A stretch of DNA of 64,000 bases from Gammaproteobacteria bacterium (GCA_965221955.1 CBDCTA010000026.1:1-64000), one strand, 5' to 3'. Numbered from the stretch's first letter, positions 6,813-56,910 are shown. Notes: generated by a model from the letters alone, not told the origin. A program made the numbers and translations.

Positions 6813-8297
6813 ATGGAAAACCTAGAATTACAATCTATCCAATCTGTTTCATATGTATTCGTTTTTTTGATTCGATCTTTGATGATTATGCCCGAGATAG
6901 CGTTACTGCTTGCTGCGTCCGCAATATTAATAGTGAGTTTGTTTTTAGGTCGTAAGAGCGAATTTATTACATATATCTTAAGTTTGGCTACACTGCTAGG
7001 TGTGGGTTTGTTAGTTTTTCGTACCAGAAGATACGATGACGTTATGCTGTTTGGTGATCTATACGTAGCAGATGACCTTGCAAAATTTATTAAGCTGCTC
7101 GTTTGTGTGGCTGTTGCGGTTATTTTTGTTTATGCGCGTCCTTATCTAGTAAATCGAAATTACGCAAAACCTGAATTTTACATTTTGGGTTTGTTTGCCA
7201 CGCTTGGCATGATGGTTATGGCCTCTGCGCAAAACTTCATCACGATTTACTTAGGTTTAGAGCTGCTTTCCTTGTGTATGTATGCACTTGTTGCCTATGT
7301 GCGGGATTCCAACGACGCTTCTGAAGCTGCTATCAAATATTTTGTATTGGGCGCCATTGCTTCGGGTATGTTGTTATATGGCATGTCGATCATGTACGGA
7401 ATTTCGGGCTCCTTAAGTTTGAACGAAATTGGCGCTTATCTAGTAAATGTAGAAGAAATCAGTATTGGTTTAATATTTGCATTAACGTTTATTGTGGTAG
7501 GCGTTGCCTTTAAATTTGGTGCCGTACCGTTCCATATGTGGGTGCCTGATGTGTATCAAGGTGCGCCAACAGCGGTAACGCTTTTCATCGCTACCGCACC
7601 AAAATTTGCTGCATTTGTAATGGCTTTTCGTTTGCTAAGCGATGGCTTGCAACCACTGCATATTGATTGGCAACAGATGCTCATTATTCTTGCAGTTTTA
7701 TCATTAATTTTTGGCAACGTGATTGCAATTACGCAAACTCACATTAAACGTATGTTGGCGTATTCTACCATCTCGCATATTGGGTTTGTGTTGCTTGGGT
7801 TGTTATCAGGAGAAAATTTTGGTTACGCCGCTTCACTATTTTATACAGCGATATATGTGTTGATGGCGGCAGGCGCATTTGGTGTTTTGTTGTCTCTTAA
7901 CAATAAAAATATTAATGTAGATGTAGATGAATTAACGGATTTGAAAGGCTTAAGTCAGACCCATCCATGGATGGCATTCATCATGTTGCTGTTAATGTTT
8001 TCCATGGCGGGTATGCCATTAACTGTAGGCTTTTATGCAAAACTCTATGTGTTGCAAAGCTTGGTATATAACGACTTTATCTGGTTAGCGATCTTAGCCG
8101 TAGTGATGTCAATCGTGGGTGCTTATTATTATTTGCGTGTAATTAAGTTTATGTATTTTGATCAGGTAGAAGACGCGCTGACTTCACAAAATACACTTAT
8201 TGCTTCAACAGTGTTATCAGTGAATGGCTTGCTGATTGTTGGGTTGTTTATTTTTCCTAATTACTTATTGAACTATTGTGTGAGAGTTTTTGGCTGA
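6813..8297 (+). CDS. nuoN: NADH-quinone oxidoreductase subunit N
   Basis: EAAIKYFVLG, FKFGAVPFHMWVPDVYQGAPT, KRMLAYSTISH. Confidence 0.97.
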   Translation: MENLELQSIQSVSYVFVFLIRSLMIMPEIALLLAASAILIVSLFLGRKSEFITYILSLATLLGVGLLVFRTRRYDDVMLFGDLYVADDLAKFIKLLVCVAVAVIFVYARPYLVNRNYAKPEFYILGLFATLGMMVMASAQNFITIYLGLELLSLCMYALVAYVRDSNDASEAAIKYFVLGAIASGMLLYGMSIMYGISGSLSLNEIGAYLVNVEEISIGLIFALTFIVVGVAFKFGAVPFHMWVPDVYQGAPTAVTLFIATAPKFAAFVMAFRLLSDGLQPLHIDWQQMLIILAVLSLIFGNVIAITQTHIKRMLAYSTISHIGFVLLGLLSGENFGYAASLFYTAIYVLMAAGAFGVLLSLNNKNINVDVDELTDLKGLSQTHPWMAFIMLLLMFSMAGMPLTVGFYAKLYVLQSLVYNDFIWLAILAVVMSIVGAYYYLRVIKFMYFDQVEDALTSQNTLIASTVLSVNGLLIVGLFIFPNYLLNYCVRVFG

Positions 8298-8304
8298 TTA
8301 TCAA

Positions 8305-8382
8305 ATTGTCTGCTACGACCACCATGTATGGTGGAGGTGCAGAAATTGCAGGAGCAAATTTCTGTCAACCCAAAGCGGACTT
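8305..8382 (+). repeat. Palindromic cassette site (type B core) split by a ~47-bp two-hairpin insert
   Basis: Left half ATTGTCTGCTACGACC (8305-8320) and right half ACCCAAAGCGGACTT (8368-8382) match the intact copy at 11630-11659. Confidence 0.65.
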
Positions 8383-8587
8383 ACATCCATTATTATGGGA
8401 ATATTCTCGGGCTCAGACTCAGCATGGATATGCAAAATATTACACATTGAATTATCTGCCATCATTCATAATATTAATTAGTCAGGAAAATTTTTTATTA
8501 ATGCTTCGTTCATAATAAATTGCCAATACCTCTGGTTTTGGGCTATAAAACTAGCTCATAGAAAATATCAAATAGCGTAAAGTATAT

Positions 8588-10330
8588 ATGGAAGACCTAA
8601 GGCTGCATGATGCTGTTGTTTTTCTTGCTGCAGCAGGTCTTGTGATTCCTTTTGCAAAGCGGTTGAGAATAAGTCCTGTACTAGGGTTTATGCTTATCGG
8701 ATTGGCAGTAGGACCGTATGGTCTTGCAAGATTTGCAGAGCAATATAGTTGGTTAAATTATTTTTTAATTACGGATGTTGAAGGTGTTCGAGCTTTAGCG
8801 GAACTAGGTATTGTTTTCTTGTTATTTATGATTGGACTAGAGTTGTCTTTTGAGCGACTCTGGAGACTTCGTTACTTAGTATTTGGTTTAGGTTCGTCAC
8901 AAATAATAGTTACTGGAATTATTATTGGTGGCATTGCTTGGGCTTTTGGTAATTCTGTACAAGCTTCCGTCATATTAGGAAGCTGTCTTGCGCTCTCTTC
9001 TACAGCCATTGTTGTTCAGTTATTAGTAGAACACGGTCGTTTTGGTAGTACGGTTGGTCATGGCAGTTTTGCTGTTCTTCTTGCCCAAGATCTTGCGGTT
9101 GTTCCTATCTTGTTTGTAGTCAGCACATTTGGTGCATACACAAGTGATTCTCTAATTTGGTCATTAATATTGGCATTTGGTGAAGCGATCATTGCCGTTT
9201 TGATAATCTTAAGTGTTGGTCGTTTATTGGTTCGACCTTTGTTTCGATTTGTTGGGTCAACAGATAGCCCAGAACTCTTTATGGCTGTGACATTGTTAAC
9301 AATCATCGCAACCGCCTTTGCCACTCACACTGCTGGTCTATCTGCGGCTCTGGGAGCATTCCTTGCCGGGCTTCTACTTGCTGAAACCGAATTTAGTCAC
9401 GAAATCGAGATTAATGTTGAGCCATTCAAGGGATTACTACTTGGCTTATTTTTCATGTCTGTTGCAATGGGCATTGATTTGACTGAAATATTGGCTGAAC
9501 CCGTTTGGATTCTTTTATCTGTATTAGGATTATTTTTAATTAAGTCTCTAGTCACAGCCGGGCTTGCTCGTGTTTTCGGTTTTAGTTGGGCGCAAGCATC
9601 TGAGATGGGACTGCTCCTAGGCCAAGGAGGTGAATTTGCATTTGTAGTGGTTGGTATGGCATTGAGTCTCACTTTACTACCTGAATCCACGGGGCAATTT
9701 ATGCTTATTGTAGTGAGCGTTACGATGTTTCTCACTCCTTTTGTAGCACGAATCGCAAAGAGCCTGGGCGCATTAATAGAAGAGCATACACGACCCACTA
9801 ATGAGCAAGTAGAAATAATTCCACACTTAACTAATCACGTCATAATTGTAGGTTTTGGGCGCACAGGTCAATTATTGGCATCTCTATGTGATCATCAGCA
9901 AATTGAACACATTGCTCTTGATCTAGATGCAACACGTGTTGCAAATTCAAGAGAGCAAGGTGTTCCAGTTTATCTTGGTGATGCAAGTCGTGTTGCAATG
10001 TTACAGAAAATTGGACTAAAACAAGCAGCAGTACTAGCAATTTGTACAGATGACCCTCTTGCGACCGAGCAAGTATTGCGTGCTGCACGCCAAGTTTCAC
10101 CTAGTGTTTCAATCATTGTAAGAGTTCATAATAGTGCACATGCATCAAATCTGTTGGGACAAGGTGCAACTGAAGCTGTTCCTGAAGTTTTAGAATCAGG
10201 TCTTCAGCTAGGACAATTGATGCTGGAAGAGATTGGCCTAGCAACTAATGCAGCTCGTGACATCGTTGATGCGCAACGAGCAGAGATTATGCATGAATTA
10301 CATAAATCGATTTCTAATTTGAATCAATAA
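8588..10330 (+). CDS. KefB/KefC-family CPA2 K+/H+ antiporter with C-terminal TrkA-N (KTN) domain
   Basis: AELGIVFLLFMIGLELS, LSSTAIV, QDLAVVP, EPFKGLLLGLFF, QGGEFAFV, IIVGFGRTG. Confidence 0.92.
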   Translation: MEDLRLHDAVVFLAAAGLVIPFAKRLRISPVLGFMLIGLAVGPYGLARFAEQYSWLNYFLITDVEGVRALAELGIVFLLFMIGLELSFERLWRLRYLVFGLGSSQIIVTGIIIGGIAWAFGNSVQASVILGSCLALSSTAIVVQLLVEHGRFGSTVGHGSFAVLLAQDLAVVPILFVVSTFGAYTSDSLIWSLILAFGEAIIAVLIILSVGRLLVRPLFRFVGSTDSPELFMAVTLLTIIATAFATHTAGLSAALGAFLAGLLLAETEFSHEIEINVEPFKGLLLGLFFMSVAMGIDLTEILAEPVWILLSVLGLFLIKSLVTAGLARVFGFSWAQASEMGLLLGQGGEFAFVVVGMALSLTLLPESTGQFMLIVVSVTMFLTPFVARIAKSLGALIEEHTRPTNEQVEIIPHLTNHVIIVGFGRTGQLLASLCDHQQIEHIALDLDATRVANSREQGVPVYLGDASRVAMLQKIGLKQAAVLAICTDDPLATEQVLRAARQVSPSVSIIVRVHNSAHASNLLGQGATEAVPEVLESGLQLGQLMLEEIGLATNAARDIVDAQRAEIMHELHKSISNLNQ

Positions 10331-10392
10331 GGCAATCTGCATTTCATTGAAAACGATTCATCATCATACAATTACATTACAGTTACGATTGT

Positions 10393-10581
10393 ATGTCCGT
10401 TATTAGCCGAAAGGAGACAAAAATTAAAATTGATTGGTTTTCAACGTTACTAGTTACTTTACTTTTAGCAACATTGTTAGCATTTTTCACTGGAATTTTC
10501 CCGTATCCTTATGGTTGGATTATTCTTACAATTGTGCTCATAGCTAGACTAACTGCTAACTATAGAAAAAATGATCGCTAA
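10393..10581 (+). CDS. Small two-TM hypothetical membrane protein (cassette)
   Basis: 62 aa, two hydrophobic segments; TAA stop lies inside the downstream palindromic site. Confidence 0.65.
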   Translation: MSVISRKETKIKIDWFSTLLVTLLLATLLAFFTGIFPYPYGWIILTIVLIARLTANYRKNDR

Positions 10582-10599
10582 CGATCCAAAGCGGACATT
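10570..10599 (+). repeat. 30-bp palindromic cassette site, type B core
   Basis: AATGATCGCT-AACGATCCAA-AGCGGACATT. Confidence 0.85.
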
Positions 10600-10636
10600 T
10601 AATATTTAAATAATTCTTTATATAAAGGATGGCTTT

Positions 10637-11077
10637 ATGTCTTCTAAAGCAACAGCATTATTAATAGGTGGATTTTTACCTGCATTTATTTATGGTGGGT
10701 CAGCTATTTTTCAAAAGTTCAGCACAAATGTTGGTATAAGTATATCAACGTATCTTGTTGCAGTTGGTTTAGGGGTTGCTATTGCAGGGTTAGGATTTTA
10801 TTTTTTTGACAATACAGCCCCTTTTTCAATTAAAGCAAGCTCATTTGCAAGCTTATTCGGTTTGACATGGGGAATAGCAAGCGGATTAGTAGCCTATTCA
10901 TTGCTTCATTTTAATATACCAATATCTCAATTAGTTCCCTTATATAATATGAATACACTAATTGCTGTATTGCTGGCTTTGGTGATCTTTAGCGAATGGA
11001 AAGATATACATACAGTAAAATTATTAGTCGGTAGTGTCTTAATCGTATTTGGTGCTATTTTTGTAGCAAATGCCTAA
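10637..11077 (+). CDS. EamA/DMT-like small membrane transporter (cassette)
   Basis: 146 aa, ~5 TM segments, ISQLVPLYNMNTLIAVLLALVIFSE typical of DMT half-transporters; AAGGA RBS. Confidence 0.75.
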   Translation: MSSKATALLIGGFLPAFIYGGSAIFQKFSTNVGISISTYLVAVGLGVAIAGLGFYFFDNTAPFSIKASSFASLFGLTWGIASGLVAYSLLHFNIPISQLVPLYNMNTLIAVLLALVIFSEWKDIHTVKLLVGSVLIVFGAIFVANA

Positions 11078-11083
11078 CGTTTA

Positions 11084-11113
11084 TGAATCCGCTAATGGCC
11101 GAAAGCGGACATT
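11084..11113 (+). repeat. 30-bp palindromic cassette site, type A core
   Basis: TGAATCCGCT-AATGGCCGAA-AGCGGACATT. Confidence 0.85.
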
Positions 11114-11142
11114 ATGACTTGCTAAGTACAAATATAATTAAA

Positions 11143-11550
11143 ATGCACCAAGTTTTTGTATACGGAACATTAAAATCAGGTTTTGCCAATCACAATGAGA
11201 TGCTGAAAGGGGAAAAATATCTCGGAACCTTTGTGACAATTGAGAAATATCCTTTAGTCCTCACCGGGCCGTGGAATTCTCCTGTTATGTTTCCCGAGAT
11301 AGGTGTTGGGAAATATGTAAATGGTGAAGTGTATGAAGTTAACGATTTAAAGCTCAAACACATAGATGAGTTTGAATATGTTCATTTACCTCAAGGCTTT
11401 AGAAGATTTAAGTTGAGGGTTAAGTCAATCACAGGTGAAATTTTATTTGCTGAAGCATATATGCGATTAAGAAAATTCATTAAGGAGATTCGCTCGGAAT
11501 ATTTATCGGACTATCAAGACAAGAGTTATGTGCACGAAAGCCAGAGATGA
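11143..11550 (+). CDS. Gamma-glutamylcyclotransferase (AIG2/YtfP-like) (cassette)
   Basis: VFVYGTLKSGFANH, VNGEVYEV, IDEFE; true start probably ATG 11143, since the ORF-track start lies in the repeat. Confidence 0.88.
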   Translation: MHQVFVYGTLKSGFANHNEMLKGEKYLGTFVTIEKYPLVLTGPWNSPVMFPEIGVGKYVNGEVYEVNDLKLKHIDEFEYVHLPQGFRRFKLRVKSITGEILFAEAYMRLRKFIKEIRSEYLSDYQDKSYVHESQR

Positions 11551-11556
11551 CTTTTA

Positions 11557-11586
11557 AATGTCCGCTATTGGCCGAAAGCAGACAAA
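11557..11586 (+). repeat. 30-bp palindromic cassette site, type A core
   Basis: AATGTCCGCT-ATTGGCCGAA-AGCAGACAAA. Confidence 0.9.
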
Positions 11587-11629
11587 AAATGGGATGCAAT
11601 GTGTTGGAATCAATAAATTATAAGTTCAG

Positions 11630-11659
11630 AATGTCTGCTAACGACCCAAAGCGGACATT
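11630..11659 (+). repeat. 30-bp palindromic cassette site, type B core
   Basis: AATGTCTGCT-AACGACCCAA-AGCGGACATT. Confidence 0.9.
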
Positions 11660-11702
11660 TTGGTCTTTCTCAATATTACTAGTTTAATTTAAGGGGATAT
11701 GC

Positions 11703-12326
11703 ATGCAAAAACTAACTTATAAAGCATTTGCTTTAATAACAATTACATTCTTATTGGTTGCTGGATGTGCAACACCAATAAGTGATACAGAAAAGTCCGC
11801 AATCAAAAAGATTGGAATTATTAATTCATTTGAAAAACATCCGAATTATCTAAAAATTGGCACTACAATGTTCACCAATAAAGAATCTCTTATAGAGGAA
11901 TTAGAATACAAAGAGTTTGTTAGGGACGAAGTAGCTAATTATTTACAGAATAAAGGTTATATTATTGTCGATGTAGGTGATTCTGATGCTATATCGCAAG
12001 GAGCTGTTGATATGACAATTGAAATTGTTCCTAGGGATGCAAAGCAAAGACCTTATACTTATGGATATGGCTTTGTGCAAAGATTTTTACTTGGTAAAGG
12101 AGAGCCACCTAAATCATATATCGCTCTAAACCTTGTTCCAAAAAGCAATAAAGCGAGAAATCCATTTAGTGCTTATTATCACGAAAACTATGAACTATTA
12201 AACATTAAAACATTACCAGATACATGGAATGAACTTACAGAAACCCAGAAAAATGAATTTTCTAATAATTTGAAATTAAATATAAGTAAAACGATTGGTG
12301 AGCTTATACCTAAACTAGGTTTGTAG
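11703..12326 (+). CDS. Hypothetical lipoprotein (cassette)
   Basis: Signal peptide with lipobox LVAG-C; AAGGGGA RBS; very AT-rich. Confidence 0.8.
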   Translation: MQKLTYKAFALITITFLLVAGCATPISDTEKSAIKKIGIINSFEKHPNYLKIGTTMFTNKESLIEELEYKEFVRDEVANYLQNKGYIIVDVGDSDAISQGAVDMTIEIVPRDAKQRPYTYGYGFVQRFLLGKGEPPKSYIALNLVPKSNKARNPFSAYYHENYELLNIKTLPDTWNELTETQKNEFSNNLKLNISKTIGELIPKLGL

Positions 12327-12355
12327 AATTTAAATGTTCAATAATCAAAATCCTA

Positions 12356-12385
12356 GATGTCCGCTATTGGCCGAAAGGCGACATA
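12356..12385 (+). repeat. 30-bp palindromic cassette site, type A core
   Basis: GATGTCCGCT-ATTGGCCGAA-AGGCGACATA. Confidence 0.85.
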
Positions 12386-12407
12386 ATTAACTATCACTAC
12401 AGAAGCT

Positions 12408-12728
12408 ATGAATACGGGTGAGCGCATAAACCGAAAGATTGGAAGCACTACACTAGCATTGCGACTTATTTGCAGTGCATTGGTAGTTTTTCCTTTGCTC
12501 GACTATGTAAAAACTGTATTTTTTAGTGGTGGTAATGGAAACGCATATTTATTTTTCATTTTGCTCGTGCTTGGCTTTATTGCAGGAATCATACTAATCG
12601 TTAATTCATTATTTTGTTTATACCAGTATCGCAATATTGAGACTCCCTGGTTTAGTTTTGTATTCATATTGGTTGGTGTTGTTGGAATCTTTATGGCATG
12701 GCATTTTCTTCCTCAGTTCAGAATGTAA
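12408..12728 (+). CDS. Hypothetical 3-TM membrane protein (cassette)
   Basis: 106 aa with three hydrophobic segments; stop codon directly abuts the next site. Confidence 0.75.
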   Translation: MNTGERINRKIGSTTLALRLICSALVVFPLLDYVKTVFFSGGNGNAYLFFILLVLGFIAGIILIVNSLFCLYQYRNIETPWFSFVFILVGVVGIFMAWHFLPQFRM

Positions 12729-12758
12729 AATGTCCGCTATTGGCCGAAAGCGGACATT
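12729..12758 (+). repeat. 30-bp palindromic cassette site, type A core (perfect arms)
   Basis: AATGTCCGCT-ATTGGCCGAA-AGCGGACATT: perfect 10-bp inverted arms. Confidence 0.92.
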
Positions 12759-12770
12759 CATAAATTACTT

Positions 12771-12894
12771 TAGTAGAGGGCAGGGTTTGCTCGGACTATC
12801 CGTGTCCTCACCCTACGGTTCATCATATTAAGTAATGACCAAAATCATTCCGGACGATTTTGTGAACCTTGCGACCTACGGTCGCAGGCTTCAT
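12771..12894 (-). other. Degenerate tRNA-fMet 3'-half copy interrupted by a structured insert (att-like scar)
   Basis: TAGTAGAGGGCAGGGTTTG ... TGAACCTTGCGACC resembles TGGTAGCGGGGGCAGGATTTG-AACCTGCGACC of the tRNA at 13036. Confidence 0.55.
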
Positions 12895-13035
12895 AAATTT
12901 TAGTTACGTGAAATAGTGAATATGGTGAACAATGAATCGCTTCGCGATGATTAGTTTGCGTGTAACACGCATATTTGGATTAACATGTGTCGCTAAAGCG
13001 ACCATTGATTTGCGCATAATAGCCATGCGCATGTC

Positions 13036-13112
13036 TGGTAGCGGGGGCAGGATTTGAACCTGCGACCTTCGGGTTATGAGCCCGACGAGCTGCCAGACTG
13101 CTCCACCCCGCA
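13036..13112 (-). tRNA. Initiator tRNA-fMet (CAT)
   Basis: TGCGGGGTGGAGCAGTCTGGCAGCTCGTCGGGCTCATAACCCGAAGGTCGCAGGTTCAAATCCTGCCCCCGCTACCA; three G-C pairs in the anticodon stem, 1:72 mismatch, encoded CCA. Confidence 0.98.
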
Positions 13113-13129
13113 TCGATCTGAGCGGCAGA

Positions 13130-13158
13130 AGTCTACGCAGATGAGCCGGATAATTCAA
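13130..13158 (-). promoter_or_regulatory. Sigma70 promoter of tRNA-fMet
   Basis: TTGAAT-17bp-TAGACT on the minus strand followed by a GC-rich discriminator. Confidence 0.6.
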
Positions 13159-13322
13159 TAATAAAAAGAATAATATGTGTGACTTCGTCACGATTAATTT
13201 GTGAGCAGTACCCACTCTCAAGTATCCCGCGCATCGATCCAAGTACATATGGGTATGTTAATTAAGTAATAATGCTAAACAATGTTATGAATGATTTTTG
13301 AGAATTTAGGTGGCAGATTGCA

Positions 13323-13634
13323 ATGTTGATTACTTTTGAAACCAAGGCATATGCAAATATCACTATGTTTGGGGATATTGCTAAAAAGTTGATCAAGTTT
13401 ATGGGTCACAGTGGAACGGTACCGGGTGCCATTTTGGCAGAAGACTTACCCGAAGCACTTGAAAGCTTACGTTCAAAATTGCAGATGGAAATGGCGAGTG
13501 AACAAAAATGTGAAGCGGGTGACAGTCAAGATGAGGATGAAAATTATGTGAGTATTGAGAATCGGGCTAAGCCGCTTATTGAATTACTTGAAGCAGCAAT
13601 TGAACAAAATGTTGATGTCATGTGGGATAAATAA
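13323..13634 (+). CDS. DUF1840-family protein
   Basis: MLITFETKAYANITMFGDIA...MGHSGTVPGAI...RAKPLIELL...VMW signature. Confidence 0.85.
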   Translation: MLITFETKAYANITMFGDIAKKLIKFMGHSGTVPGAILAEDLPEALESLRSKLQMEMASEQKCEAGDSQDEDENYVSIENRAKPLIELLEAAIEQNVDVMWDK

Positions 13635-21089: not shown

Positions 21090-23186
21090 GTGAGTAAAAT
21101 TACAAAGACATTTACGTATGGGGAACATCAAGTCACCTTAGAGACTGGCGAGATTGCAAGACAAGCGGATGGTGCCGTAATGGTGGACATGGGTGGTACT
21201 ACAGTGATGGTGACTGCAGTAGGCAAAAAAGAAGCTGAACCTGGTCGTGATTTTTTCCCGCTCACCGTTAACTACCAAGAGAAAACTTATGCGGCAGGAA
21301 AAATTCCTGGTGGATTCTTTAAACGCGAAGGTCGCCCTACTGAAAAAGAAACGCTTACTTGTCGTTTAATCGATCGTCCAATCCGTCCAATGTTTCCAAA
21401 AGATTTTGTAAATGAAGTGCAAATCATTGCAAACGTTATGTCGATGAATACAGATATTGATCCTGACATTCCTGCCATGATTGGTGCATCTGCTGCACTC
21501 TCAATTTCGGGTATTCCTTTTAATGGTCCAATGGGAGCAGCACGTGTAGGTTATATTGATGGTAACTATGTATTAAATCCAAGTTACTCACAGTTGAAAA
21601 AATCGCGTTTGGACCTAGTGGTTGCAGGAACCCAAAGTGCAGTTCTCATGGTGGAATCAGAAGCCGATATTCTTCCAGAAGACGTAATGTTGGGTGCAGT
21701 AATGTTTGGTCATGAAAGTTTACAAACCGCAATCAATGCGATTAATGAATTTGCGGCAGATGTGAATACACCTGCATGGGATTGGCAAGCGCCGGAAGCA
21801 GATCAATCACTTGCAGATAAAGTTAATCAAGCTTGTGCAGCACAATTAGGTGAGGCCTATCAAATTGCCGAAAAACTTACTCGTCAAGAAAAAGTAAGTG
21901 AAATTCGAAACGCAGCAGTTGAATCTATTGCCGTTAAAGGTGAACAAGGCGAAGAAGAAGGTCCAACTGAGGCAGATGTATTAGCGGCATTTAAAAAAGA
22001 AGAAAAGAAAATTGTTCGTGGCCGCATTTTAGCAGGCGAAAAACGCATTGATGGACGTGACAAAAATACAGTACGACCGATTACAGTTCGTACGGGTGTT
22101 TTACCACGCACACACGGTAGTGCATTGTTTACACGTGGTGAAACTCAAGCGGTTGTAGTGACAACCTTAGGTACAGGGCGTGATGCACAAATCATCGATG
22201 CCATTGAAGGTGAATATAAAGACAATTTCATGTTGCACTATAATTTCCCGCCGTTTTGTGTGGGTGAAACAGGGTTTGTCGGTTCGCCAAAACGACGTGA
22301 AATTGGTCACGGTAAACTTGCAAAGCGTGGGATTCAGGCTGTAGTGCCAAGTGAAGAAGAGTTCCCATATGTGTTGCGCGTTGTTTCAGAAATTACTGAA
22401 TCAAATGGTTCCAGCTCTATGGCTAGCGTGTGTGGTACAAGTTTGTCATTAATGGATGCGGGTGTACCTCTAAAAGCACCTGTAGCGGGGATTGCGATGG
22501 GTTTGATTAAAGATGCCGATGATTTTGCGGTACTCAGTGACATCTTGGGTGATGAAGATCATTTAGGTGACATGGACTTCAAAGTAGCAGGTACTACTGA
22601 AGGTGTAACTGCATTACAAATGGATATCAAGATTGAAGGCATCACCAAAGAAATCATGGATCAAGCGCTTACGCAAGCCAAAGAAGGGCGCTTACATATA
22701 TTAGGCGAGATGGCGAAAGAGATTTCTGCGCCACGTGAAGAGATGTCTGATTATGCACCACGATTTACTGTACTAAAAATTAATCCAGATAAAATTCGCG
22801 ATGTAATTGGTAAAGGCGGTGCAACAATACGTCAACTTACCGAAGAAACCGGTACTACTATCGATATTGACGATGACGGTAATGTAAAAATTGCATCCAT
22901 TGATAAAGCAGCAGGGGATGATGCTAAACGACGTATTGAAGACATCACTGCTGATGTAGAAGTCGGTAAAACGTATGAAGGTAAAGTAGTAAAGATTATG
23001 GATTTCGGTGCTTTTGTGAGTGTTTTACCAGGTAAAGATGGTCTCGTTCATATCTCACAAATTTCACATGAACGTGTTGAAAATGTGACTGATGAATTAA
23101 CAGAAGGTGACATTATTAAAGTCAAAGTACTTGAGATTGATAAACAAGGACGTATTCGACTAAGTATGAAGGCGGTAGAGGGATAA
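21090..23186 (+). CDS. pnp: Polyribonucleotide nucleotidyltransferase
   Basis: [41 protein letters not shown] and S1 domains; GTG start. Confidence 0.99.
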
Positions 23187-23204
23187 TTGCTTAAATTAAA
23201 GTAT

Positions 23205-23233
23205 AAAAAAGGGCGCTTAGTGCGCCCTTTTTT
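23205..23233 (+). terminator. Intrinsic terminator after pnp
   Basis: AAAAAAGGGCGC-TTAGT-GCGCCCTTTTTT. Confidence 0.9.
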
Positions 23234-23262
23234 ATATCTGCTTTAAATTGTTAGCGGATATT
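23233..23262 (-). repeat. Degenerate palindromic cassette site (type B, reverse orientation)
   Basis: TATATCTGCT-TTAAATTGTT-AGCGGATATT; core differs from the reverse complement of type B (TTGGGTCGTT) only by transitions. Confidence 0.6.
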
Positions 23263-23280
23263 TGTTAATAAAATTAAAGG

Positions 23281-23547
23281 CTAACTATCTGTCCAAGGAG
23301 ATTGTTGAATAAATTCGTTAAATTCAAATTGATTTATAGAACCATTTCCATTTTTATCATAACGAGAAAAAATTTTATCATCGGCTAAGTTGAAAGCGTT
23401 TCTAGCTTCATCTCGATCTATACGTTCGTTTCGGTCTAGATCGACACTGAAAAATAATCCATCTGCAAAACTTCTGCCGCCAAATGCTGAAGCTATAGTT
23501 GGCACTGATATAACAAAAATGATAAGTAGTATAAAATAGGATTTCAT
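23281..23547 (-). CDS. Small secreted EF-hand protein (single cassette)
   Basis: Signal peptide; DLDRNERIDRDE and DKNGNGSINQFE EF-hand loops; AAGGAG RBS. Confidence 0.85.
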   Translation of the reverse strand: MKSYFILLIIFVISVPTIASAFGGRSFADGLFFSVDLDRNERIDRDEARNAFNLADDKIFSRYDKNGNGSINQFEFNEFIQQSPWTDS

Positions 23548-23621
23548 AATTACTCCTTAATAAATATATTGGTAGTTAGGTAATAGACCCGCAATATAGG
23601 GAATATCTTACACTATAAAAT

Positions 23622-23651
23622 TATGTTCGCTATTGGCCGATAGCGGACATT
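23622..23651 (+). repeat. 30-bp palindromic cassette site, type A core
   Basis: TATGTTCGCT-ATTGGCCGAT-AGCGGACATT. Confidence 0.88.
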
Positions 23652-23774
23652 TTAATATCACCTAACTTTAATCTGTTGCATTATCCCTGATGGACATCAT
23701 ATCCCTCTATCCATCTGCTCGCACACCTGCACACACTATTGGTGTTAGCTGGCATTTAGTTCAAAATAGCACTT

Positions 23775-24185
23775 ATGTCTGACAAGCCAAAAATTCAAAA
23801 ATCTGATGAAGAATGGCGTAAGCAATTAACGCCAGAACAGTTTTATATTTGTAGGCAGAAGGGCACCGAACCTGCGTTCACTGGCGAATTTAATGCGCAT
23901 AAAGAAAACGGGATGTATGTGTGCGTGGCGTGCAAAACGCCATTGTTCGATTCAGATCATAAGTTTGATTCAGGCTCTGGTTGGCCGAGTTTTTTTCAAC
24001 CGGTGAATTCTGAATGTATTCAGGAAGAGTTTGATGAATCTCATGGCATGCGAAGAACTGAAGTGATGTGCAAGGCATGTGGTGCTCATTTGGGACATGT
24101 GTTTGAAGATGGGCCACAACCAACAGGGCTTAGATACTGTATCAACTCTATTTCCTTAGGCTTTGATTCTAAAGATAATTCTTAG
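23775..24185 (+). CDS. msrB: Peptide-methionine (R)-S-oxide reductase
   Basis: [35 protein letters not shown]; two CxxC. Confidence 0.98.
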
Positions 24186-24499
24186 CTTTTATTCTGACTT
24201 GGCTAAGGTTGTTCGGGACTCTATTGTAAAGAAAGTGCTGGTTTCCTGGCGAATTTATTGTGTGTCAATACGTTATCTAATGGCCAATTAATTATGTACA
24301 AATGCAGAATTTTGATTTGAAGCATTTATACAAATTAAATTTTGTGGAAGCGGTGCTACTAAATTGGATGAAACGGGTGCTATAATTCTTATATATATCA
24401 GTGTGGTGTACTAAAAACATAAGTAAATCAGTACAACCCTAAGACAGATTCCTAAATCTATTCTTTTGTAATCTTACTTTCTTCTTGATGGAGGCAAAC

Positions 24500-25642
24500 A
24501 TGAAGAAATTTTTAATCAACGCGCGGTACTTTTTAGCACCGTTACTTATCTTAGCGTCCTTATTTGGCGTACTTGCGGGGGGTCCCTGGGTGTGGACCGG
24601 CGTACTTCTACTGGGTGCTGGGATCATCATCGACACCCTAACGACAGCCCAAACCCCAGGAGCTGGCTTTGACGAAAATGGCGACACCAACGGCATCGTA
24701 CCCCTATTAAATGGCACCATGTACGGCATGCTCGCCGTGTTTGCCCTGATTCAAATCGCCCTAGCCTGGCGCATTTGGCAATACGTCAATGGCGTACCCA
24801 TTGGCACCACCGAAATTCTAGGCCTCACCGTCCAAGACGGCATTACCGGCACCCAACTATGGGGCGCTGTCATGTCCTCCGGCATCTTCGCCGGTATTGG
24901 CATTATTTATGGTCACGAACTGGCCCACACCAAAGGCTTCAGCTTCGTCATTGCACGCTGGATGATGGCCCTAAGTGGCAAAGCCCACTTCTGCTATGCC
25001 CACGTCTACAACCACCACCTAGAACTCGGTCACCAAGACGACCCTGCTACCGCCCCACGTGGACGCAGCATGTACACCCACTACCCTCTTTCTGGACTGG
25101 GTCAAAGCAAATTCCTCTTCATGATGGAAAAACAACGTCTTGAACGCCTAGGCGTACCCTTTTTATCCTGGCAAAACCGCTGGATTCGAGGCTACTTCAT
25201 GGCCCTGCCTACCGTCCTACTATTCTGGTTCGTAGGCGGCTGGCTTGGCATGCTCTGCTTAGCAGGCGTATGGCTCATCTCCAACTTCGAGCTCGAAGTC
25301 CTCAACTACCTTGAGCACTACGGCCTCATTCGAGAAAAAGGTCAGCCGATAGACTACCGACATAGCTGGGACAACAGCACCGCATTTACCAGCTGGTTCT
25401 TTATTGAAATTGGTCGCCAAGCCGACCACCACGACCGAGGTGAGACCCACTTCTGGGAACTCGACGAAGTCGGCGCCCCCAACTGCGGACGCGGGTACTT
25501 CACCCTGTTTGCACTGGGCCTACTGCCTCCGGTATTCCATGCCTACATGAAGGAACAATTGGCGAAATGGGATGACGAGATGGCCTCTGAGGGCGAATTA
25601 AAGATCGCCAATCAGATGAATAAACAAGCTGGATACGTGTAA
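24500..25642 (+). CDS. Membrane non-heme di-iron monooxygenase (AlkB/XylM family)
   Basis: His boxes HELAH, HVYNHH, NYLEHYG, RQADHH; DPATA motif; ATG 24500 after GGAGG. Confidence 0.92.
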   Translation: MKKFLINARYFLAPLLILASLFGVLAGGPWVWTGVLLLGAGIIIDTLTTAQTPGAGFDENGDTNGIVPLLNGTMYGMLAVFALIQIALAWRIWQYVNGVPIGTTEILGLTVQDGITGTQLWGAVMSSGIFAGIGIIYGHELAHTKGFSFVIARWMMALSGKAHFCYAHVYNHHLELGHQDDPATAPRGRSMYTHYPLSGLGQSKFLFMMEKQRLERLGVPFLSWQNRWIRGYFMALPTVLLFWFVGGWLGMLCLAGVWLISNFELEVLNYLEHYGLIREKGQPIDYRHSWDNSTAFTSWFFIEIGRQADHHDRGETHFWELDEVGAPNCGRGYFTLFALGLLPPVFHAYMKEQLAKWDDEMASEGELKIANQMNKQAGYV

Positions 25643-55497: not shown

Positions 55498-55533
55498 TTT
55501 TTTAACTAAGAAACTCTCTTTGGAGGAGTACAC

Positions 55534-56883
55534 ATGAAGAAAAAACTACTAACGTTAGTGGTAGCATTAGGATCGATGCTAGCTGTGAGTACCGCGGTAC
55601 AAGCAGAAGACACCATGTACGTACCGATTCCGAGCTACCGTGTAGGACCATATGCGGCGGGTGGAACGGGCTACTTTGGTGGCATCCTAGACTACTACAA
55701 CCTATTGAACGAAAGAGATGGCGGCGTCAATGGCGTGAAGCTCATCTGGTCAGAGTGCGAAACTGAGTACTCAGTAGAGCGCGGAGTAGAGTGCTACAAG
55801 CGACTAAAAGATCGTGAAGGTGGTGCAGTATTTTTTGACCCATTATCAGTAGGGATCTCCACAGCATTGATTGAGACTGGTCGTAAAGACAAGATGCCCA
55901 TCATTGCGGTCAACCACGGTAAGACAGCGGGCCAACGCGGCGACATCTTCCCTTACTACTTTATGCCAGGTATCAACACCTATGACGAACACTCCATTAT
56001 GGTGCACTTCATTGGTGACGTACTCGAAGGCGGACGTGACAACCTAAAAGGCAAGAAAATTGCCATGTTATACCACGGCTCTCCATACGGTCGTGAAGCG
56101 ATCGACTTCATGGACAGCATGTGTGAAAAGCACGGTTGCACCCACCACCCTCTAGAAGTCCCTCATCCAGGTAACGAACAACAATCACAATGGTTGAACA
56201 TTCGTAAATTAAAGCCTGACTATGTACTACTAAGAGGCTGGGGCGTAATGAACCCCGTAGCGATGCAGACCGCAGTACGTACCGGATACCCAGTAAGTCG
56301 TCTCATCGGCAACATCTGGTCCAACTCAGACGAAGACGTCATCCCAGCGGGTAAAGCGGCAGATGGCTACCAAGCCATTACCACCCACCCTGCAGGCACC
56401 GACTTCGCAGTGGTACAAGAAATCATCAAGACCGTATACGGTGCAGGCAACGGCGACTTACAAGACAAGTCACGTTTAGGCTCTGTGTACTGGAACCTAG
56501 GTGTATTAGCCGGCGTGGTGCATACAGAAGCACTCCGTATTGCTCAAGCTCGTTTTGGCAACCGTCCATTGACCTCTGCTGAAGCACGTTGGGGCTTTGA
56601 GAACCTACGTCTTGATGCAGCGCGCATTGAAGAGCTAGGAGCAACCGGGCTTGTGCCTGAGTTGAACCTTACTTGCCTTGACCACGTAGGCGGTCACCTT
56701 GCGAAATTCCAACAATGGGATGCAGGCAAGCGTCAGTGGAACATCGTATCGGATTGGATTGAGGGCGATGTACCTCTATCACAAGCGATCATCGATGCAG
56801 GTGCAGAGCAGTATGCAACGGATAACAAAATCGCAGCACGTCCTTGCACCGCTGACAATAATGATGATGACTTTGACTTGTAA
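55534..56883 (+). CDS. Liv-type ABC transporter periplasmic substrate-binding protein
   Basis: Signal peptide, YRVGPYA, GGVNGVKL...CETEY, YHGSPYGRE, WGVMN, DHVG; GGAGGAG RBS. Confidence 0.92.
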   Translation: MKKKLLTLVVALGSMLAVSTAVQAEDTMYVPIPSYRVGPYAAGGTGYFGGILDYYNLLNERDGGVNGVKLIWSECETEYSVERGVECYKRLKDREGGAVFFDPLSVGISTALIETGRKDKMPIIAVNHGKTAGQRGDIFPYYFMPGINTYDEHSIMVHFIGDVLEGGRDNLKGKKIAMLYHGSPYGREAIDFMDSMCEKHGCTHHPLEVPHPGNEQQSQWLNIRKLKPDYVLLRGWGVMNPVAMQTAVRTGYPVSRLIGNIWSNSDEDVIPAGKAADGYQAITTHPAGTDFAVVQEIIKTVYGAGNGDLQDKSRLGSVYWNLGVLAGVVHTEALRIAQARFGNRPLTSAEARWGFENLRLDAARIEELGATGLVPELNLTCLDHVGGHLAKFQQWDAGKRQWNIVSDWIEGDVPLSQAIIDAGAEQYATDNKIAARPCTADNNDDDFDL

Positions 56884-56910
56884 GATTTAAATATAAGTTT
56901 TAAATCATTT

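Follow-up and report, generated by a model that had tools for sequence, protein, structure and literature searches.

Which genes occupy the interval between nuoN and the neighboring tRNA-Met gene in a member of an uncultured marine gammaproteobacterial family, and how did they come to be there? The locus lies in a stretch of 64,000 nt (GCA_965221955.1, CBDCTA010000026.1:1-64000; hereafter the window), which is part of contig C26 of an assembly that has a total size of 2.69 Mb in 29 contigs, a GC content of 38.6%, and is 96.6% complete with 4.3% contamination; open reading frames (ORFs) are our own crude calls and cover 90% of the genome. An initial annotation, made from the sequence of the window alone, had described this interval as an integron-like array of small genes delimited by seven copies of a 30-bp palindrome. 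The reading that we arrive at, and to which we give about as much credence as doubt, is that approximately nine large arrays are composed of mobile cassettes with one gene each and that the interval is one of them; movement of the cassettes would be explained by site-specific recombination at a short palindromic site. Other contigs are designated by C numbers and other genomes by G numbers, and the relatives compared are species representatives, not strains.

Comparison of the locus within the genus revealed that in 11 of 13 congener loci tRNA-Met lies ~55–350 nt after the nuoN stop codon with no site in between. Because most congeners have tRNA-Met next to nuoN and the native spacer sequence is found past the array in the window, the 4.5 kb at 8303–12758 is a lineage-specific insertion with sites at both boundaries, a type of difference that the initial annotation had expected a comparison of this interval to reveal. 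A different array of ~16 kb occupies the same spot in G011; its first 15 kb contain 14 sites, and sequence matching the native spacer (window 12771–12900) is found ~16 kb beyond nuoN. In G003, repeat-like sequence follows directly after nuoN and the contig ends soon after. The tRNA-Met gene and its upstream region (window 12759–13250) are inverted relative to nuoN here and in G014; the ten remaining congener loci in which the tRNA is visible have the opposite orientation. In G001 and G007, the leader of the tRNA is present in tandem copies, along with the first bases of the tRNA itself. The inversion and the tandem leader copies suggest past integration events at this tRNA.

The palindromic sites described in the initial annotation are real; their description as a lone 30-bp site has to be amended, because they form a family with two different centers that often combine into hairpin doublets of ~100 nt and that make up a mosaic with other repeat modules. 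Position counts reduce the 30-mer to a 28-nt core with a layout that is readable as 11-6-11. Sites of both types have a near-invariant right arm (AAAGCGGACAT) and a left arm that is variable at positions 5, 7, and 11, and this asymmetry is the reason for reading the site as two 11-nt arms around the 6-nt centers TGGCCG (type A) and CGACCC (type B). A single site folds into a stem of 9–10 bp, with the sequence TGTC inside the paired stem, and a loop of 10 nt that takes the form ATTGGCCGAA in A and AACGACCCAA in B.

Sites were collected genome-wide with a relaxed finder that allows up to five mismatches over two 9-nt arms and up to four in the loop against the reference, and this yielded 173 sites versus two for a reversed-motif control. 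Seventeen of the 173 sites fall inside ORF calls. The placement of the sites relative to genes is regular: A sites follow a co-oriented stop codon by ≤30 nt in 50 of 64 cases, and B sites precede a start codon by ≤45 nt equally often (50 of 64). The gene upstream has the orientation of the site at 64 of 77 A sites and at 68 of 79 B sites that are extragenic, and adjacent sites are co-oriented in 117 of 125 pairs. Segments between sites have a median length of 494 bp. The sites group into 48 clusters, and nine arrays account for 103 of the 173 sites (60%). The clearest array (C5 676–8626) consists of eleven consecutive units, each composed of an A site, 45 or 55 nt, a B site, and 300–730 bp with one small ORF. 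Array cargo is varied and includes small membrane proteins and lipoproteins as well as, by eye only, acetyltransferase, Sel1-repeat, OsmC-like, Hsp20-like, macro-domain, and Rieske-type proteins. Among 39 tRNA and tmRNA genes, three have a site within 1.5 kb. We also considered and rejected a DNA uptake sequence: the arm 9-mer occurs in 139 copies, 127 of which are in sites, leaving 12 outside sites versus 15 for the reversed control.

Among close pairs of sites, 30 of 33 consist of A followed by B along the direction of transcription, with spacers of 31, 43–45, or 54–55 nt, resulting in doublets of ~100 nt. The doublet at 11557–11659 in the window folds as one long imperfect hairpin rather than two, in which the outer arms pair together and the two loops pair partly (-36.8 kcal/mol and z -5.2 for the + strand; -39.5 kcal/mol and z -5.9 for the - strand). 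Dozens of doublets, from this genome and from others, match it at 72–93% identity, and searches of a plasmid collection and a phage collection returned no match. Such stable folds, the tracking of gene orientation by the sites, and the location of A directly after stop codons and of B within short 5' leaders would all suit palindromes that act mainly on RNA, that is, 5' and 3' hairpins that punctuate, stabilize, or terminate accessory-gene transcripts and for which a coincidence with exchange points is secondary. We consider this very unlikely. The sites have no T-run and were not scored as intrinsic terminators, and no relevant Rfam family matched in window 8000–13500 or 23000–25000. Moreover, the sequence of the stem itself is conserved among site-bearing genomes and contigs with a GC content from 37% to 67%; arm changes are mainly one-sided, with a doubly compensated pair (7–24; T,A) found once per type, and 25 of 49 B sites tolerate mismatched A:A at position 5 of the arm. 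An action on RNA would also leave unexplained why the boundaries of homology and of insertions and deletions lie at sites.

These boundaries carry the evidence for cassettes. The assembly contains two versions of several regions (C14/C23, C10/C29, and C11/C26), which are 97–99.7% identical and differ mainly in cassettes; this fits two co-assembled strains and the contamination estimate of the assembly. C14 and C23, which are 99–99.5% identical, differ by segments of ~1 kb, 1.5 kb, and 11 kb, and C10 and C29 differ by 1.4 kb versus 4 kb. When the ends of the alignment blocks in these two pairs were compared with site coordinates, all 12 internal ends were within 12 nt of a site.

Boundaries of the same kind are found in comparisons with other genera and between loci of this genome. 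A cytochrome c cassette (C11 53–730) matches G019, which belongs to another genus, at 89.7% nucleotide identity over 678 bp with unrelated flanks; both ends of the match are within sites in both genomes, and the upstream site has the A loop in one genome and the B loop in the other, with identity beginning at the right arm. The cassette annotated as a DMT transporter (window 10564–11113) is 90% identical at the nucleotide level to a copy in G015, also of another genus, and 87% identical to one in G022, and the match includes both flanking sites, B and A, up to their outer edges. A copy in G019 (81.5% amino acid identity) has an A site at its 5' end and a B site at its 3' end. Site-to-site matches were also obtained for the gamma-glutamylcyclotransferase-like (GGACT) cassette (window 11084–11588; 78% to G002) and for two pairs within this genome (C5 756–1534 and C26 69643–70422, 86%; C5 3077–3669 and C17 16509–17104, 78%). 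The gene for the 106-aa membrane protein has a 73% nucleotide match in G019, elsewhere in that genome, and the Kef antiporter gene has homologs of ~80% nucleotide identity at other loci in 3 of 55 family genomes, site-flanked in G002 and G004; the lipoprotein-like ORFan has relatives in none of the 55 other family genomes at E ≤ 1e-5. Given that NuoN has an amino acid identity of only 71% to G019 and 73% to G015, nucleotide identities of 90% between cassettes indicate transfer between genera. These comparisons show that genomes gain and lose cassettes and exchange them with one another, at points that lie inside the sites. The expectation of the initial annotation that the sites bound single small genes of variable content is therefore borne out, because haplotypes differ exactly at sites and cassettes recur in other genera and other arrays; content varies rather than being identical, and the sites are placed non-randomly.

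At the nuoN locus itself, the pattern of the initial annotation with up to three mismatches is found at 10570, 11557, 11630, and 12729 and, outside the array, at 23233 and 23622, versus none in 100 shuffles, and the relaxed finder identifies seven sites within 10393–12757. All seven copies originally reported are present in the sequence, and the relaxed finder adds an eighth, at 10393–10420, that had been missed. The distances reported from stop codons to sites were correct (0, 6, 6, and 29 nt, with one stop codon, 10579–10581, inside the site at 10570–10599), and two of the proposed units have to be redrawn. What had been taken for an empty unit (43 bp between 11586 and 11630) belongs to the standard A-spacer-B doublet at 11557–11659, and the first unit, which had been assigned both the Kef gene and a 62-aa gene, contains the Kef gene alone because of the extra site at 10393; the 62-aa ORF is doubtful and may be spurious because its start lies within an A site and its end within a B site. 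As to the identities given for the genes, those of the antiporter and the GGACT protein are supported by Pfam, and the other genes match no Pfam family. The coordinates are collected in table 1. The site at the left boundary (8303–8386) folds at -30.5 kcal/mol with z -3.8. The insert in its 6-nt center, Y (window 8321–8367), consists of ~47 nt that form two hairpins; the Y-interrupted site is found at 85–93% identity in many congeners and also elsewhere in this genome, and Y may be a tiny element that targets the site center.

Table 1. Features of the array between nuoN and tRNA-Met, in window coordinates
Feature	Coordinates	Strand	Remarks
Left boundary B-type site	8303..8386	+	6 nt after nuoN stop; ~47-nt two-hairpin insert Y in center
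Cassette gene, Kef-type cation/proton antiporter, 580 aa	8588..10330	+	Pfam Na_H_Exchanger 3e-53, TrkA_N 1.7e-20
Degenerate A-type site overlapping start of 62-aa ORF	10393..10420	+	Relaxed finder
62-aa ORF across 150-nt A-to-B junction	10393..10581	+	Sub-threshold Pfam match only; doubtful gene
B-type site	10570..10599	+	37 nt before start of DMT-like gene
Cassette gene, 146-aa multi-pass membrane protein (DMT in initial annotation)	10637..11077	+	No Pfam family
A-type site, degenerate left arm	11083..11113	+	6 nt after stop of DMT-like gene
Cassette gene, gamma-glutamylcyclotransferase-like (GGACT)	11143..11550	+	Pfam GGACT 9.6e-19
Canonical A-spacer(43)-B doublet	11557..11659	+	Empty unit in initial annotation
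Cassette gene, 207-aa lipoprotein-like ORFan	11703..12326	+	No Pfam family
Degenerate A-type site, GC swap in right arm	12355..12386	+	Sequence reading, relaxed finder
Cassette gene, 106-aa membrane protein	12408..12728	+	No Pfam family
Right boundary, perfect A-type site	12729..12758	+	Starts at base after stop; 0 mismatches
Native nuoN-tRNA spacer sequence, outside array	12771..12900	.	Matches beside nuoN in G007, G001
tRNA-Met (CAT)	13036..13112	-	Direct nuoN neighbor in most congeners

Elsewhere in the window, the regions 24485–25642 and 55522–56889 are 99.6% identical to places on C29, and the former encodes one of four membrane hydroxylase/desaturase-like paralogs with histidine boxes recognized by eye. 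The end of contig C22 (1–1926) consists of perfect tandem repeats with a period of 339 bp and five 112-aa ORFs.

Besides Y, the mosaic includes a module of ~80 nt, X, that is located directly 5' of B sites and, as its reverse complement, 3' of A sites. There are 63 copies of X genome-wide (e.g., C29:132255–132336), and the copy in the window (23664–23731, - strand) stands beside the A site at 23622–23651. X forms two hairpins with stems that differ between copies with pairing kept and with xGGAUx loops, which resemble CsrA-binding loops; no Rfam family matches it. Copies of X in inverted pairs enclose one cassette, an entire array, or an "empty" unit of ~200 bp. If X represented the terminal inverted repeats of elements that are similar to miniature inverted-repeat transposable elements (MITEs) and are moved by a transposase, then the arrays would be their passengers and the palindromes merely internal. 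We regard this as highly improbable, even though there are inverted X pairs around single cassettes (C29 312292–312958, C4 10261–10885), around the whole array at C23 10738–23397, and around an "empty" ~200-bp unit at C29 575425–575630, the array in G011 begins with X directly after the nuoN stop codon, and insertion into site-free spacers would be explained. X is, however, absent from both ends of the array in the window, homology between shared cassettes stops at the palindromes and not at X, and all-against-all clustering found no multi-copy transposase family in this genome.

We infer for these exchanges a mechanism of conservative site-specific recombination, in which a circle composed of a gene plus a site would be excised between two direct sites and could be re-inserted at any site. 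The recombinase would be supplied in trans, and the only candidate is a rare Xer-like tyrosine recombinase from another genus. The gene-capture platform with a trans-acting recombinase that the initial annotation envisaged is thus upheld in the behavior of the cassettes and not in the enzyme, as no trans recombinase was found in this genome. No sigma-70-like promoters were found in the cassette spacers of the window, and the cassettes, which are without recognizable promoters of their own, are probably transcribed by read-through from nuoN.

The recombinases identified in this genome are XerC, XerD (found on both haplotypes), a phage-type integrase of 431 aa, and a single large serine recombinase encoded at C26:86441, outside the window; no Y1/RAYT/HUH protein, IS110-type transposase, or reverse transcriptase was found in it. 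The dif-like site of this genome (C4:59807) has arms that are unrelated to the site arms. The candidate was recognized in G019, where two Xer-like tyrosine recombinase paralogs of 378–379 aa, which are 47% identical and have no arm-binding domain, bracket an array: the first site is located 176 bp upstream of one of the genes in divergent orientation, and the stop codon of the other is 8 nt from the last site of the array. Matches with at least 44% identity are present in 9 of 56 family genomes, all of them site-bearing; because these nine genomes are related, the co-occurrence is not an independent test. The candidate is intact only in G019, G045, and G002.

A number of observations weigh against recombination by this enzyme, or by a dedicated enzyme at all. 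In this genome the candidate consists of two short fragments with stop codons on C4, and the arrays would therefore be largely frozen, like integrase-less attC clusters. It is absent from G010 (83 sites), G014, and G015, and it is rare, with 15 homologs among 5.8 billion proteins; it was seen in none of 80 site-bearing metagenome loci, and none was found in JGI metagenome contigs. So rare a protein cannot explain every occurrence of the site. Some site-bearing genomes encode only two tyrosine recombinases, XerC and XerD. The initial annotation had proposed testing whether the sites co-occur with one tyrosine-recombinase or HUH family; the candidate is missing from several site-rich genomes, and RAYT proteins, present in 8 of 56 family genomes, are not tied to sites. 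No circular intermediate or excision joint was observed. Fourteen sequencing runs with matching reads were found, none of them recorded as RNA, and four of the runs yielded low-depth metagenome contigs only; the 11 joints obtained, with sides of ≤30 nt, look like cross-matches between repeat copies, and array parts left uncovered in runs X2, X3, and X5 do not count as evidence. The quality of the data is limited as well, the assembly being a low-depth metagenome assembly. The unfilled nuoN-tRNA spacer of congeners is without any site, and a first insertion therefore needs another route. Finally, doublets of ~100 nt with 75–93% identity could support homologous recombination with the same boundaries, and a swap of center type around the same gene could come from slippage between identical doublet arms.

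Homologous recombination is at the core of an alternative that we judge unlikely though far from negligible, in which the sites are palindromes of the repetitive extragenic palindromic (REP) or BIME type without a dedicated recombinase. They would provide portable homology, and cassettes would be moved by homologous or slippage recombination after DNA uptake, an exchange similar to that proposed for Neisseria repeat arrays. High copy number, the mosaic with other modules (63 X copies and the Y insert), the extragenic location mostly downstream of genes, the lack of a credible enzyme in this genome, the scarcity of arm changes compensated on both sides, and a spread of the site through the phylum (1–6 copies per genome) that is much wider than that of the candidate recombinase are all in keeping with such palindromes. 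According to the REP surveys, REP, BIME, and REPIN-RAYT elements are likewise extragenic palindromes with at least 100 copies, mostly downstream of genes in a repeat mosaic, and have two unit types that pair over defined spacers into larger hairpins (PMC2817692, PMC3733652), and the doublets here are long hairpins just as REP dimers are (PMC3733652). RAYT proteins (Y1_Tnp, PF01797), however, are not encoded here, are found in 1 of 15 genus genomes and 8 of 56 family genomes without tracking the sites, and are absent from the site-rich genomes G004, G019, and G010. The sites also have no unpaired GTAG or CGTC tag; their stems of 9–10 bp and loops of 10 nt differ from the CGTC families, which have an unpaired CGTC tag (TGTC/CCTC) at one end, stems of 8–9 bp, and loops of 4–5 nt (PMC3733652). 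In addition, single sites of 28 nt, which is short for RecA-dependent exchange, bound cassettes too, each unit encloses one small gene, units are exchanged between genera, and the sites are co-oriented (117 of 125 pairs), whereas described REP dimers are mostly in opposite orientation. The literature searched contained no description of the site or of the arrays; the repeat could be among the entries in additional files to these surveys (PMC3733652, PMC2817692).

The site, with both loop types, is present in 13 of the 14 other genomes of the genus, the exception being G013, which has none, and in 34 of 56 family genomes, where it ranges from 1 to 145 copies (145 in G004, 116 in G019, and 83 in G010). 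Even samples contained site-bearing genomes in 14 of 401 cases for the class and in 35 of 401 for the phylum. Outside the family of the window there are 1–6 copies per genome, except for G038, a member of a second family, with 18. As the site is at low copy across Pseudomonadota and at high copy here, the family represents a large expansion of a thinly spread element. An exact scan found the site in at least 120 metagenome contigs, and 80 unrelated metagenome loci with the site have a median GC content of 56% and often several sites each. In these loci (L232–L311, mostly 50–63% GC) the palindrome is sometimes present as three related tandem units (e.g., L286 6700–6825), and 30 of the 80 carry one gene family with a twin-arginine-type signal and, by eye, the look of a solute-binding protein; in the one locus examined (L235 1588–2743), the solute-binding-like gene adjoins a site.

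Textbook accounts assign the collection and shuffling of single genes in bacteria to integrons. Tentatively, and with rather less than even confidence, we propose that the arrays represent a second capture system that is independent of integrons, in which a sequence-defined 11-6-11 site, single or as a doublet, would be acted upon by an Xer-like or other enzyme in trans, would provide tens of landing sites per chromosome in this uncultured marine gammaproteobacterial family, and would transfer genes across genera, and possibly across pseudomonadotan classes. If true, a system that is unrelated in sequence has the same anatomy, and the capture of cassettes has more than one evolutionary origin. 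These arrays would escape integron finders as well as REP/RAYT finders. The proposal is testable, because the site is short and well defined, the cassettes are easily recognized, and there is one candidate enzyme; and given the low-copy occurrence of the site in many further Pseudomonadota and its presence on at least 120 metagenome contigs, the influence of the mechanism on accessory gene content may extend well beyond the family.

Among known systems, integrons and clusters of attC sites lacking integrases (CALINs) have the most comparable layout. They share co-oriented, single, small, mostly promoterless ORFs that are each followed at once by an imperfect palindromic site, patchy and often ORFan cargo, and arrays without a nearby recombinase; the ~100-nt doublet, like an attC site, has two simple sites that are inverted about a variable middle portion and folds into an imperfect hairpin. 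An attC site is defined as an imperfect palindrome of 57–141 nt with RYYYAAC and GTTRRRY outer cores. Doublet length and the single long imperfect hairpin fit this definition, but by inspection the outer ends of the doublet are without such cores. The best matches to the integron integrase model NCBIfam TIGR02249 in this genome are XerD and XerC at ~83 bits versus a cut-off of 265; it is exceeded in only 5 of 56 family genomes (G041, G052, G015, G056, and G013), unrelated to site counts, and G002, G004, G010, and G019 have only Xer-level matches. One of the five, G013, is the congener without sites. It has a full integron integrase and, ~2 kb from its xerD, an 86% nucleotide match to a cassette gene of this genome, in which a large array lies beside xerD; the places noted in G013 are C20:40615–41559 and C7 near 40725. 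Further differences are that no IntI is linked to the sites, that the sequence of the site is conserved across classes and not its structure alone, unlike attC, that single 28-nt sites bound cassettes too, and that there are 48 clusters instead of a single platform that has attI and Pc. It is thus barely credible that the arrays are a classical integron in divergent form or a cluster of attC sites without integrase. The integrase model, the dif arms, and the Rfam scan together agree with the initial annotation that the site is not attC, dif, or CRISPR.

Xer/dif recombination and the pdif modules of Acinetobacter plasmids are similar in that the 28-nt site can be read as 11-6-11 with one conserved and one variable arm, the sites bound small modules that move between replicons, and the candidate enzyme is Xer-like. 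The sites described here differ in having arms unlike those of the dif site of the same genome, and in forming chromosomal arrays with ~100–170 sites per genome. The sites that flank pdif modules are in alternating, inverted orientation, whereas neighboring sites here are direct in 117 of 125 pairs.

The dRS3 repeats of Neisseria have a role in exchange. Like the sites described here, they are short palindromic repeats in large clusters that form intergenic mosaics beside variable genes. The REP survey identifies them as CGTC-1 repeats (PMC3733652). The arrays in this family differ from dRS3 arrays in the sequence and layout of the repeat, in showing no evidence of phage integration at the sites, and in that a pair of repeats encloses a whole gene.

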